This document shows, piece by piece, positions 55,568 to 57,754 of a stretch of DNA of 64,000 nucleotides. The position numbers were made by a program, and so were the translations under genes. Origin of the DNA: an uncultured Gammaproteobacteria bacterium (GTDB lineage: Bacteria; Patescibacteriota; Microgenomatia; UBA8517); assembly GCA_964599625.1 (NCBI GenBank), contig CAZRGC010000003.1, positions 97,759-161,758 of the forward strand, read 5' to 3'. The stretch's first letter is position 1. Each line of letters opens with the position of its first letter. Under the pieces are notes generated by a model. That model made no database searches and was not told the origin of the DNA. It saw only the letters and a program-made list of their open reading frames with translations.

Positions 55568-55939
55568 ATGGTAAGTGATCGTATTTTGGCAGAGGCTAAA
55601 AAATATATACCTGAGTGTGACTACATCGTAGATCTTTTTGACCTAATGTTTATTTGGGTTAGCGACAAAGCACTAAAGGAGACAGGTTTTACCAAGGATG
55701 AGATTTTGAGGATGCGAAACCTTGATCTTATAGCCGAAGGAATGTATTCCGAAGTTGACTTGCGCAAGCAACTTATTGAAAGAATTACCAAAAAACAGGG
55801 CGAAAACACTTACATTCTCAAAACCGCCAAGGGTCTTTTGAATGTGCGTTATCAATATCAGGCATTTCAATTTGATGGCGGCTGGTACATAACGGGAAAG
55901 ATTTTGGAAACCTCCCCCGCCCCAAATCCTCAGTCTTAA
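55568..55939 (+). CDS. Hypothetical protein (123 aa)
   Basis: ORF directly after rpsI. No recognisable motifs. Confidence 0.4.
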   Translation: MVSDRILAEAKKYIPECDYIVDLFDLMFIWVSDKALKETGFTKDEILRMRNLDLIAEGMYSEVDLRKQLIERITKKQGENTYILKTAKGLLNVRYQYQAFQFDGGWYITGKILETSPAPNPQS

Positions 55940-55954
55940 GTTATAATTTTTACA

Positions 55955-56998
55955 ATGTCAGAACCACTTTATGATCCGACGGTTTTGGAAAAATATGAAG
56001 TGCCGGAAGCTTTCCGTTATTCGTTGGACGAAGAAGAGGTGACCAACGAAGAAATTTCGGCTGTCAGGCGTTTGGTAAGGGAAAATAAAATAGAGCAAAA
56101 AGGAGCATTTGCAGCAGGTATTAAATACGCGAGGCAAGAGATAATAGCGCTGGAGAATGATCTGGGTCTGGTTCAGAAAGATGAAAGGTCGATGCAAGTA
56201 GCTGTCTTACCCGACGCAGTATTTGAAAAGGCATACTTTGATCTTACCCGTCAAGAAGCCGGAGACAGTGGTGGCGGTTATGCAAACGCACTGGGAAGTG
56301 TTGTATTAAGAGCAAGTACCGACCCTGCATATATAAAATCTTCAATGGTTTACCACGAGTTTGTACATAAGTTTATAGATAAGCATATACAGGTTTTTTC
56401 CAAGGTAAGACGCCCAAGTGGCAGAATTGCCCATGATTATGTAGATAGAAGATCGGGTCTATCGGTGGAAAATGTAACCAAAGAAAGCTCGGCAAAAGGG
56501 ACAAAACCCCGCGGCGAACTTTTGAATGAGCTGGGAAACTACATGGAACAGCATAGGTTTATTTTAAATATATTGGATAAGCCCGAATTTGCTGAAGAAA
56601 AACAGAGGCGCGAGAAACTTCTCAGATCGATGGGTTTTGGAGAATCGGGAGGGTTTTGGATAGCAAATGTCAAAAAGCAGGATGGGAGTACATTGCAGAT
56701 AAACCTTGATAGAGACAGTATTCATATTGACGAAAACGGGGATTTTAATCCCGCAACCCTGTTTTTTTATATGCAACTTGCAACGGATTTGGGAAAGGCA
56801 TGTGACCCACAAAACGATGGGGCGGCTTTCAGGAAGCTTCTTTTGGATTGTAAAGTTGATCCCTCAAAACAAAACGAACTCAGAAAGATGGTGGATATGG
56901 GAATGGGAGAGGGTTTTTACACCAGATTAAAGTCGGCGGGTTACCAATCGGACGATGAACTTTTAGACCTCATTGTAGAGGTGCAATCCAAACTATAG
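55955..56998 (+). CDS. Hypothetical protein with an HExxH motif (possible zinc metallopeptidase-like)
   Basis: ..SSMVYHEFVHKFID.. contains HEFVH. No other protease motifs verified. Confidence 0.4.
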   Translation: MSEPLYDPTVLEKYEVPEAFRYSLDEEEVTNEEISAVRRLVRENKIEQKGAFAAGIKYARQEIIALENDLGLVQKDERSMQVAVLPDAVFEKAYFDLTRQEAGDSGGGYANALGSVVLRASTDPAYIKSSMVYHEFVHKFIDKHIQVFSKVRRPSGRIAHDYVDRRSGLSVENVTKESSAKGTKPRGELLNELGNYMEQHRFILNILDKPEFAEEKQRREKLLRSMGFGESGGFWIANVKKQDGSTLQINLDRDSIHIDENGDFNPATLFFYMQLATDLGKACDPQNDGAAFRKLLLDCKVDPSKQNELRKMVDMGMGEGFYTRLKSAGYQSDDELLDLIVEVQSKL

Positions 56999-57030
56999 TG
57001 AAACCTATTGTGTGGTAAAATAGGCTCCTA

Positions 57031-57045
57031 CGGGGTGTAGTTTTA
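57031..57045 (+). repeat. Partial copy 1 of the tRNA-Pro 5' end (CGGGGTGTAGTTTTA)
   Basis: Matches tRNA positions 1-13/14 at 57181. Confidence 0.6.
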
Positions 57046-57084
57046 GCCAGCAGGCGAAATACACACTTTAGTCTTAGTTACAAA

Positions 57085-57107
57085 CGGGGTGTAGTTTACC
57101 CGGTAAG
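57085..57107 (+). repeat. Partial copy 2 of the tRNA-Pro 5' end (CGGGGTGTAGTTTACCCGGTAAG)
   Basis: The first 16 nt are identical to the tRNA 5' end, then it diverges. Confidence 0.6.
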
Positions 57108-57180
57108 CTTCGATGGGTCCCTTCCCATCTCAGGTGCTTTGCACCAAGCTTGGCCAGTAATCTCCACCCCTCGCATAGCT

Positions 57181-57251
57181 CGGGGTGTAGTTTACCGGTA
57201 GAATGGGCGCATGGGGTGCGTCCGGACTGAGTTCAATTCTCAGCACCCCGA
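57181..57251 (+). tRNA. tRNA-Pro (anticodon GGG), CCA not encoded
   Basis: Manual cloverleaf. Acceptor CGGGGTG/CACCCCG; U8; D-stem GTTT/GAAT with GG in the loop; anticodon stem GGCGC/GCGTC; loop A-U-GGG-G-U; T-stem CTGAG/CTCAG with a TTCAATT loop; discriminator A. Confidence 0.65.
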
Positions 57252-57754
57252 CCGAATGGTGGGTTTAGTTTATAAAGGTCGGCAAGGGTTTTTTTGACGC
57301 TTTCAAAACCGATATTTTTAAGATTTGGAATATCTTTGATATCCACCCAAACCAGTTCTGATACGTCGTCACTTGCTTCTATCTCTCCACCCGTAATCTC
57401 CACAATAAACTGAAATACTAATATTGGTTTGTCCGCATCACCATATGTGTCGGGATAATTCCCGAGAAGTCTGATTACTTTAACATCAAGCCCTGTTTCT
57501 TCTTTTGTTTCCCGAATAGCAGCCTCTTCAGCTGACTCTCCCGGGTTTATAAATCCTCCAATCACATCATATGTTCCTTTGAATGGTTCGTTTTTTCTTA
57601 TTGCCAGAAGTACTTTATTGTTTTTTATGGGAATTGCTGAGGCGCCGGGTACAGGGTCTTGGTAAATACTAAACCCGCAGTCCAAACAAATGATTTTGGT
57701 TTCTTTGAGGTCCAGTTTCCGACTTCCGCAAACAGGGCAAAATATATATTTCAT
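57233..57754 (-). CDS. NUDIX hydrolase with N-terminal zinc ribbon (NudC / NADH pyrophosphatase-like architecture)
   Basis: CPVCGS...CLDCG zinc ribbon followed by the Nudix box GGFINPGESAEEAAIRETKEETGL. Start placed at MKYIF (ATGA overlap with the upstream gene) rather than the ORF-track start at 57874. The 3' end overlaps the opposite-strand tRNA by ~19 nt. Confidence 0.7.
   Translation of the reverse strand: MKYIFCPVCGSRKLDLKETKIICLDCGFSIYQDPVPGASAIPIKNNKVLLAIRKNEPFKGTYDVIGGFINPGESAEEAAIRETKEETGLDVKVIRLLGNYPDTYGDADKPILVFQFIVEITGGEIEASDDVSELVWVDIKDIPNLKNIGFESVKKTLADLYKLNPPFGRGAEN

Follow-up and report, generated by a model that had tools for sequence, protein, structure and literature searches.

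The DNA analyzed here, referred to as the window, is a stretch of 64,000 nucleotides (nt) from contig CAZRGC010000003.1 of an uncultured bacterium, and the element in question lies directly 5' of its tRNA-Pro(GGG) gene, where two short units, A and B, each begin with a copy of the 5' end of the tRNA. The window is chromosomal, as it contains rpoA, rpsI, recA, the gene for RNase Y and a NUDIX gene, and no similarity to phages was found among 50,697 phage records. By RpoA, the nearest genomes are metagenome-assembled genomes of Woesebacteria and Microgenomates (Patescibacteria). At the locus itself, the neighbours are rpsI, NUDIX, recA and RNase Y, with recX placed by synteny. A tRNA-Pro(GGG) gene near rpsI, 3' of rpoA-rplQ-rplM-rpsI, is found in 74 of 104 related loci, and all 74 tRNAs among the related loci examined are tRNA-Pro(GGG).

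The first-pass annotation of this DNA had read the region as a tRNA-Pro(GGG) gene preceded by two partial direct copies of its own 5' end, and both parts of this reading hold. ARAGORN detects tRNA-Pro(GGG) at 57181-57253 as the sole tRNA in the window, and the Rfam model RF00005 scores 47.6 bits at 57181-57251 in an E-value-mode scan of 451 nt. A gathering-mode scan of the whole window left the tRNA unlisted despite this score against a gathering score of 29, presumably due to filters. Exact matches to the 13-mer CGGGGTGTAGTTT are at 57031, 57085 and 57181, with no fourth site in the 64 kb at up to two mismatches, and by our own arithmetic about 0.002 exact occurrences are expected by chance in 128 kb (two strands). 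The first copy has 13 nt in common with the tRNA, the second has 16 nt exact and 21 nt when one inserted C is allowed, and the repeats are spaced 54 and 96 nt apart. With the inverted copies included, the order of the region is direct-inverted-direct-inverted-direct. Two independent assemblies (L001 and L002; numbers of this type denote the loci compared) agree at every base of this region, and homologous structures are found in further genomes, e.g., CP066686.1 (L007), a record titled chromosome. Therefore, the repeats are not an assembly artefact.

Each unit opens with F, which repeats the tRNA 5' end in direct orientation over 13 nt (A) or 21 nt (B). F is followed by one or two small apex hairpins rich in G+C, by antiF, an imperfect inverted copy of the same end, and by a short spacer (Table 1). 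All unit variants fold as imperfect F/antiF hairpins, and the two hairpins and the palindrome named in the first-pass annotation (GATGGG/CCCATC, GGTGC/GCACC and CCAAGCTTGG) are present. Pairing of the antiF_A type retains 9-13 of 13 pairs across six unit-A variants in a manual structural alignment, and in relatives F_B has T13 or C13 in accordance with the tRNA of the same host. antiF_B is equally able to pair with the real 5' end of the tRNA. The segment CACCCC near the end of B in the window and L007 resembles a 3' acceptor strand, yet it is part of antiF, and its complementarity runs into D-arm sequence.

The predicted fold of unit B (57085-57180) has an energy of -40.9 kcal/mol (z = -5.3), and none of 200 shuffled sequences was as stable. 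For B in relatives, z is -5.6 (L007) and -2.6 (L109), and the fold of 57000-57260 as a whole has z = -2.6. A covariance model built from B finds it on both strands, which means that B is a near-palindrome; its arms agree at 18-19 of 25 positions (counted from arm alignments), making it an imperfect palindrome with terminal inverted repeats. The loop of hairpin 1, UCCCUU (57118-57123), is identical in four of five full B copies and reads UCCCCA in L007, and the loop of hairpin 2 varies freely. The hairpin-1 loop contains CCC, the codon for the anticodon GGG of tRNA-Pro.

Table 1. Features at and 5' of the tRNA-Pro(GGG) gene, in window coordinates.
Feature	Position	Strand	Basis or remark
Promoter P1, extended -10 TGGTAAAAT, hexamer 57016-57021	57013-57021	+	Motif comparison across related loci
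Unit A	57031-57084	+	
F_A, copy of tRNA nt 1-13, 5' arm of A	57031-57043	+	Exact 13-mer match
Apex hairpin of A, GCC-AGCA-GGC	57046-57055	+	Stem kept in relatives
antiF_A AAATACAC, imperfect inverted copy	57057-57064	+	Pairs with 57035-57039 and 57041-57043
Spacer of A, poorly conserved	57065-57084	+	Length and sequence vary among window, L005, L012, L287 and L306
Unit B	57085-57180	+	
F_B, copy of tRNA nt 1-21 plus one extra C, 5' arm of B	57085-57105	+	16 nt exact
Core of B, inner stem TAAGCTT/AAGCTTG around hairpins 1 and 2	57104-57152	+	Minimum free energy (MFE) and centroid folds
Hairpin 1 of B, GATGGG/CCCATC, loop TCCCTT	57112-57129	+	
Hairpin 2 of B, GGTGC/GCACC, loop TTT	57133-57145	+	
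Palindrome CCAAGCTTGG	57144-57153		
antiF_B GTAATCTCCACCCC, inverted copy of tRNA nt 2-15 (12/14)	57157-57170	+	Pairs with F_B, G2-C86 through C15-G73
Spacer TCGCATAGCT between B and tRNA	57171-57180	+	
tRNA-Pro(GGG), intact	57181-57253	+	ARAGORN; Rfam tRNA model; syntenic near rpsI in 74 related loci
Fourth, imperfect F-like copy GGTGGGTTTAGTTTA	57258-57272	+	Inside NUDIX C-terminal codons, 3' of tRNA

The surroundings of the tRNA differ between close relatives. Two hypothetical genes (55568-56998), coding for proteins of 123 and 347 aa, form a strain-specific insertion 5' of the promoter, in line with the first-pass view of them as accessory. They are missing from the sister strain L298, where the ribosomal protein S9 is 100% identical to that of the window and rpsI is followed directly by the promoter and A-B-tRNA. 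Neither protein has a match in Pfam, PHROGs, PADLOC or NCBIfam, and the 347-aa protein has only three homologues among 5.8 billion proteins, the two distant ones preceding other genes. The NUDIX gene noted earlier on the opposite strand is also present. By comparison with L298, it extends over ~57233-57745 on the minus strand, codes for 170 aa, and ends inside the tRNA (57233-57253); the same overlap is seen in L016 and L298. Relative to L298, the region 57258-57272 holds a 9-nt in-frame insertion and several substitutions, and this F-like insertion, which L298 does not have, adds three residues to the NUDIX C-terminus. The loci L005, L006, L013, L015, L016, L024 and L025, with RpoA 64-92% identical to the window, stem from records titled 'uncultured Gammaproteobacteria', which are probably mislabelled bins.

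Conservation of the units in related genomes

By sequence comparison, homologous units are present in about nine Woesebacteria lineages. Unit A is carried by the window/L298, L005 (two tandem copies), L012, L287/288 and L306-308. Full-length unit B is found in the window/L298, L007, L109 and L297, and a short form without the two apex hairpins in L116 and L306-308. Wherever both units are present (window, L298, L306), the order is A-B-tRNA. In the 64 kb of the window and the related loci (about 1 Mb), every copy found of A and B lies 5' of tRNA-Pro(GGG). The cores of A and B have no match in 2.9 million viral contigs; the 15-mer GCACCAAGCTTGGCC matched at least 120 viral contigs, none of them with a B-like context. 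The first-pass annotation had named membership of the repeats in a conserved structured RNA as a finding that would refute its reading, and this is essentially what we find, but the RNA is not of a known family: Rfam returns none except tRNA, and no other family at E < 0.4 in 56900-57350.

The conservation of the units is sharply bounded. Between carriers, fourfold-degenerate sites of rplM-rpsI are 37-47% identical, i.e., effectively saturated, while identity reaches 84-92% for the non-tRNA core of B in the same comparisons and 97-100% over the first 30 nt of A. Conservation starts abruptly at the first base of F and stops at the 3' end of the tRNA, and both flanks are unalignable. Within B, 9 of 64 paired columns are variable compared to 14 of 33 unpaired columns (p = 0.005). 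The difference is also seen when only the non-tRNA centre of B is considered, where 1 of 22 paired and 6 of 13 unpaired columns vary (p = 0.006).

Several of the changes that do occur in stems preserve pairing. The apex stem of A reads GCC/GGC, GUC/GAC or AUC/GAU in relatives, and the hairpin-1 stem AUGGG/CCCAU is replaced by CGGG/CCCG in L297. Position 13 of F covaries with antiF, being U-A in the window and L007 and C-G in L109 and L116. Between the window and L298, A-B-tRNA differs by two substitutions, one of which turns C.A into C-G so that a pair is gained, and the other turns G-C into the G.U wobble that RNA tolerates. Counted over the whole units, two of seven pairs in A are compensatory, a score reached by 4 of 500 shuffles, and in B two of 32 pairs are compensatory with one additional G-C to G-U change, a score reached by 20 of 500 shuffles; neither count is corrected for relatedness. 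All of these signals agree in direction, and structural selection on the stems is likely, although not proven.

A further element, which we call the upstream element (UE; GATAAGCAAAGCTTGSC ... CCTCRTG), lies directly 5' of the tRNA promoter and is conserved in L013, L014, L087/088, L097, L107, L112, L119, L126, L148, L150, L151, L164 and L286. The short B of L306 (CCGGTAAGCAAAGCTTGCCGG) links UE to unit B, and UE may be a decayed B that is no longer transcribed. In relatives with UE, the remnant of the short-B palindrome, GATAAGCAAAGCTTGCC, is positioned 5' of the active promoter and hence outside the tRNA transcript, and both F and antiF have decayed. This decay outside the transcript is a comparative hint for a leader mechanism.

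The start of the B body, TAAGC(T/C)TC, matches the rpsI stop region in relatives; a derivation of the B body as a copy of an rpsI-tRNA spacer is no more than a lead, as no parental spacer was found. Unrelated small leader hairpins stand beside the tRNA in other loci. In L132, L134, L135, L157 and L162, the hairpin is GTTCTTC-NNN-GAAGAAC, with a variable loop and the last C being nt 1 of the tRNA, and in L285 a hairpin GTCAA-G-TTGAC ends 2 nt before the tRNA.

Promoter position and the predicted leader

The extended -10 motif (TGnTAAAAT), which most relatives have 5' of the tRNA, was scored in the 74 related loci as TGnTA[A/T/G]AAT. It ends 7-40 nt 5' of the first tRNA nucleotide in 65 of the 74, at 7-10 nt in 30 loci, at 11-15 nt in 23 and at 16-40 nt in 12; the motif was not found in four loci. 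The remaining five, with a distance of more than 40 nt, are all unit carriers, and they are the carriers in which the motif could be scored. With 30 of the 74 loci having the hexamer end 7-10 nt before the tRNA, many of these pre-tRNAs would be nearly without a 5' leader.

The end of the motif lies at -159 in the window. Nine bases separate it from the first repeat, a gap that corresponds to the spacing between motif and tRNA in other genomes. The position of P1 in front of unit A thus places the upstream copies between the native promoter and its gene. Transcription is predicted to start at ~57028-57030, 1-3 nt 5' of unit A, and A and B are probably transcribed as a ~150-nt 5' leader of the tRNA.

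Other signals in the region were considered and set aside. A second promoter right before the tRNA, TTGGCC-N18-CATAGC or TATAAC, was rejected because its start would fall inside the tRNA; this sequence is more likely a remnant of a UE-type promoter region with the -10 deleted. Likewise, the spacer TCGCATAGCT may be what is left of a second promoter region that is no longer active, as it aligns with the CCTCG-TGGTAAAAT-leader of relatives that carry UE. A search for a terminator or attenuator gave only two terminator-like matches, both weak 5-bp stems ending in TGTAGTTT of F, and no U tract after unit A or B is consistent across relatives. A terminator for the convergent NUDIX gene was also rejected, since relatives have no minus-strand U tract. 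Finally, a 15-codon open reading frame at 57113-57160 (MGPFPSQVLCTKLGQ*) was dismissed as a spurious leader peptide: it has no Shine-Dalgarno sequence, and all changes in L007, where it is retained, are nonsynonymous. In L109 the frame is lost, and in L116 it is absent.

Candidate explanations for the units

The units are best described as a variant of a structured pre-tRNA leader, put together from copies of the tRNA's own 5' end in both orientations. Their anatomy and comparative pattern are solid, and the structure is real, reproducible and lineage-restricted, while transcription, processing and function are inferred. Among the readings offered by the first-pass annotation, a leader noncoding RNA is the one closest to the evidence. 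We put the chances at about even that the two units form a structured pre-tRNA leader that masks itself and is under selection, having originated by inverted duplication and being frequently lost via deletion between direct repeats.

In such a self-masking leader, transcription would start from P1, pushed about 150 nt 5' of the usual position, and A and B would be made as a 5' leader to be removed by the 5'-processing enzyme at 57180/57181. Pairing of antiF with about 15 of the first 19 tRNA nt would block the acceptor and D stems. However, the upstream F, being transcribed first, would capture antiF, giving inert leader hairpins and leaving the tRNA to fold freely. After cleavage, the hairpin would form a stable 3' end on the upstream transcript and could protect read-through from the ribosomal-protein operon. 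The folding calculations are consistent with such competition. When antiF, spacer and tRNA are folded in silico, antiF pairs to tRNA nt 2-19, and the MFE structure of the whole precursor is the strand-swapped one. The duplex of antiF_B with tRNA nt 1-21 has -21.9 kcal/mol and ends 9 nt 5' of the tRNA, and the strongest upstream complementarity to tRNA nt 1-21 is that in unit carriers, likewise ending 9 nt before the tRNA.

The simplest origin would be an inverted-plus-direct duplication of the tRNA 5' end via template switching, after which the stems would be kept by selection for as long as they are transcribed. Clean loss of units by deletion between the direct F repeats would best explain their patchy distribution. 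Such a deletion between F copies would produce exactly the difference between L109 and L008/L099, where L109 equals L008/L099 plus a clean 93-nt segment flanked by a 21-nt direct repeat.

Several points weigh against a selected, self-masking leader. The transcription start, the co-transcription of A and B with the tRNA and their processing are predictions, transcription being deduced only from the position of the promoter motif. The covariation is based on 5-6 sequences without phylogeny correction, the alignment A6 was fitted to the model, and the covariation at position 13 could reflect gene conversion or quasi-palindrome correction instead of selection. The fold of unit A alone is unexceptional (z = -1.3), and antiF_A of the window is weak. 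RNAfold alone misses the cloverleaf of tRNA-Pro(GGG), so that the competition energies are indicative only. Additionally, masking alone fails to explain why the hairpins persist, as an antiF that is merely harmful could decay. The units are also dispensable and turn over fast, since L285 (S9 98% identical) has neither of them, and L109, L007 and L012 each have unit-free relatives at 91-97% identity of ribosomal proteins L13 and S9.

Alternatively, the units could be neutral, functionless by-products of a junction prone to template switching and illegitimate recombination, which would have scattered direct and inverted pieces of the tRNA 5' end there, with their likeness due to recent horizontal exchange of the tRNA block and their arms homogenized by gene conversion. 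We find this explanation somewhat doubtful, even though the junction between rpsI and tRNA-Pro is demonstrably unstable. At least seven relatives (L093, L104, L107, L119, L121, L146 and L147) have, between the real stop of rpsI and the tRNA promoter, a decayed direct duplicate of the final 30-40 nt of rpsI, sometimes with a small open reading frame inserted between, so that duplication affects the rpsI side of the junction too. A decayed tandem F is found in L293-295, the window has its own 9-nt F-like insertion 3' of the tRNA, and the tRNA is inverted relative to rpsI in 9 of the 74 loci. L108 and L109, with 95% identical L13 and S9, carry different tRNA-Pro(GGG) alleles (CGGAGAT... and CGGGGTG...) with the breakpoint at the -10 element, and accessory genes differ among strains even with identical S9. 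Neutral debris would account for this instability, and the patchy distribution of the units fits here as well. However, recent transfer should bring the flanks along, and instead the conservation has sharp borders at F and at the tRNA end. The core of B has kept its identity though neutral sites are saturated, and substitutions avoid the stems. Compensatory changes are moreover found in the apex stems of both units, and as these stems do not derive from the tRNA, conversion by the tRNA could not have corrected them.

It is quite unlikely that the units are scars or miniature derivatives of a site-specific element, integrative or mobile, with the 5' part of tRNA-Pro(GGG) as its target and a replacement 5' fragment on board, B then being a palindrome like a miniature inverted-repeat transposable element (MITE) with terminal inverted repeats that resemble the tRNA. 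The filled and empty sites are clean, as in L109 compared to L008/L099, B is an imperfect palindrome with inverted arms of 14-25 nt, strain-specific genes stand beside the tRNA, and the integration of elements is known to produce tRNA fragments (PMC9897764). Yet the clean loss is explained equally well by direct-repeat deletion, and the strain-specific genes are not flanked by the units, given that L298 keeps A and B without them. Scans of the flanking open reading frames with Pfam, PHROGs, PADLOC and NCBIfam gave no recombinase and no integrase, transposase or phage gene nearby, and the search for an attachment-site partner gave no distal repeat within 64 kb. The units are 54-96 nt long, A and B occupy one locus only in the about 1 Mb of related DNA, and their cores are absent from the viral contigs. 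The first-pass suggestion that the repeats mark site-specific integration or excision at the tRNA is therefore not borne out, as they are too closely spaced, copy the 5' and not the 3' end, and have no integrase.

Very unlikely, in our assessment, is a natural riboregulator in which the triad of F, antiF and tRNA 5' end would switch the folding and processing of tRNA-Pro(GGG), and the conserved hairpin-1 loop, with the cognate codon CCC on display, could sense the pool of mature tRNA-Pro(GGG) by a loop-anticodon contact in a T-box-like feedback on a tRNA gene itself. That the units are the decayed remains of a three-gene tandem array of tRNA-Pro, another first-pass suggestion, is barely credible: the copies do begin with the tRNA 5' end at a roughly gene-like spacing, and B ends with the acceptor-like CACCCC in the window and L007, but ARAGORN (default and relaxed) and Infernal (E <= 10) find no cloverleaf other than the tRNA at 57181, similarity to the tRNA ends at nt 13 or nt 21, and CACCCC belongs to the 14-nt inverted 5' copy, which, unlike an acceptor strand, extends into and covaries with the D-arm and is no longer 3'-end-like in L109 and L116. 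Unit B as an odd tRNA with an intron, a long variable arm or a missing T arm was also rejected, as the intron, mitochondrial and low-threshold calls of ARAGORN were spurious and had wrong boundaries.

Comparison with known systems

Fragments of tRNA genes are left by integrative elements as attachment-site (att) direct repeats (PMC9897764, citing Reiter, 1989; Williams, 2002). The likeness of the units to such scars is superficial and consists of a partial direct tRNA copy beside an intact gene with strain-variable genes adjoining. In att scars, the repeats are kilobases apart, compared to 54 and 96 nt here, where the 5' end is copied and no integrase is present. The 3' part of the tRNA is reportedly the one usually found in att fragments. 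Unlike att scars, each direct copy here is paired with an inverted copy, and the units persist in L298, which has no cargo.

A leader structure that gates 5' processing would be shared with the designed RNase P riboswitch, where cleavage by RNase P can be controlled through the structure of the leader (PMC7897497); here, such gating is a proposal. As in attenuator-type leaders, where 1:2 competes with 2:3 pairing, and in the RNase P riboswitch, the middle antiF could pair with either F or the 5' strand of the tRNA. In contrast to these systems, the units have no evident ligand domain, leader peptide or terminator, the switching is hypothetical, and the riboswitch is synthetic. We know of no natural example resembling the RNase P riboswitch on a tRNA gene.

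T-box riboswitches (RF00230) are also leader RNAs able to pair with tRNA, and the UCCCUU loop contains CCC. However, the region has no Rfam match to the T-box at E <= 10 and no T-box motif or Stem I, and the element is located 5' of the tRNA gene itself rather than of an aminoacyl-tRNA synthetase or amino-acid gene. The units further resemble repetitive extragenic palindromic (REP) sequences, enterobacterial repetitive intergenic consensus sequences/intergenic repeat units (ERIC/IRU) and MITEs in being imperfect palindromes of 57-96 nt that are intergenic, form a stable RNA hairpin and could protect an mRNA 3' end. They differ from these families in being single-copy and locus-specific in the DNA examined, with arms that come from the adjacent tRNA gene. 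In Patescibacteria, small structured tRNA introns and group I introns have been described (bioRxiv 10.1101/2025.07.03.662931); the tRNA-Pro here is uninterrupted.

Regarding origin, the direct-inverted-direct order of one short segment is what two switches yield in template-switch rearrangements (quasi-palindromes; duplication-triplication/inverted duplication, DUP-TRP/INV-DUP). Template switching covers the origin only and not the conservation across lineages in which neutral sites are saturated. The rpsI/tRNA-Pro junction is a very active micro-hotspot with inversions, replaced alleles, genes gained and lost, and fragments duplicated in either orientation, and could serve as a system for work on template switching and on deletion mediated by repeats in Patescibacteria. 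A functional leader would be a natural example of a pre-tRNA 5' leader that holds both a mimic and an antisense copy of the tRNA's own 5' strand, in a setting of uncultured bacteria with reduced genomes, where tRNA expression is little known. To our knowledge, a design of mimic plus antisense in a leader has so far only been engineered (PMC7897497). For annotation, the case implies that short repeats of tRNA fragments beside a tRNA gene, although routinely called att scars of mobile elements, can also represent arms within a leader whose structure is conserved.

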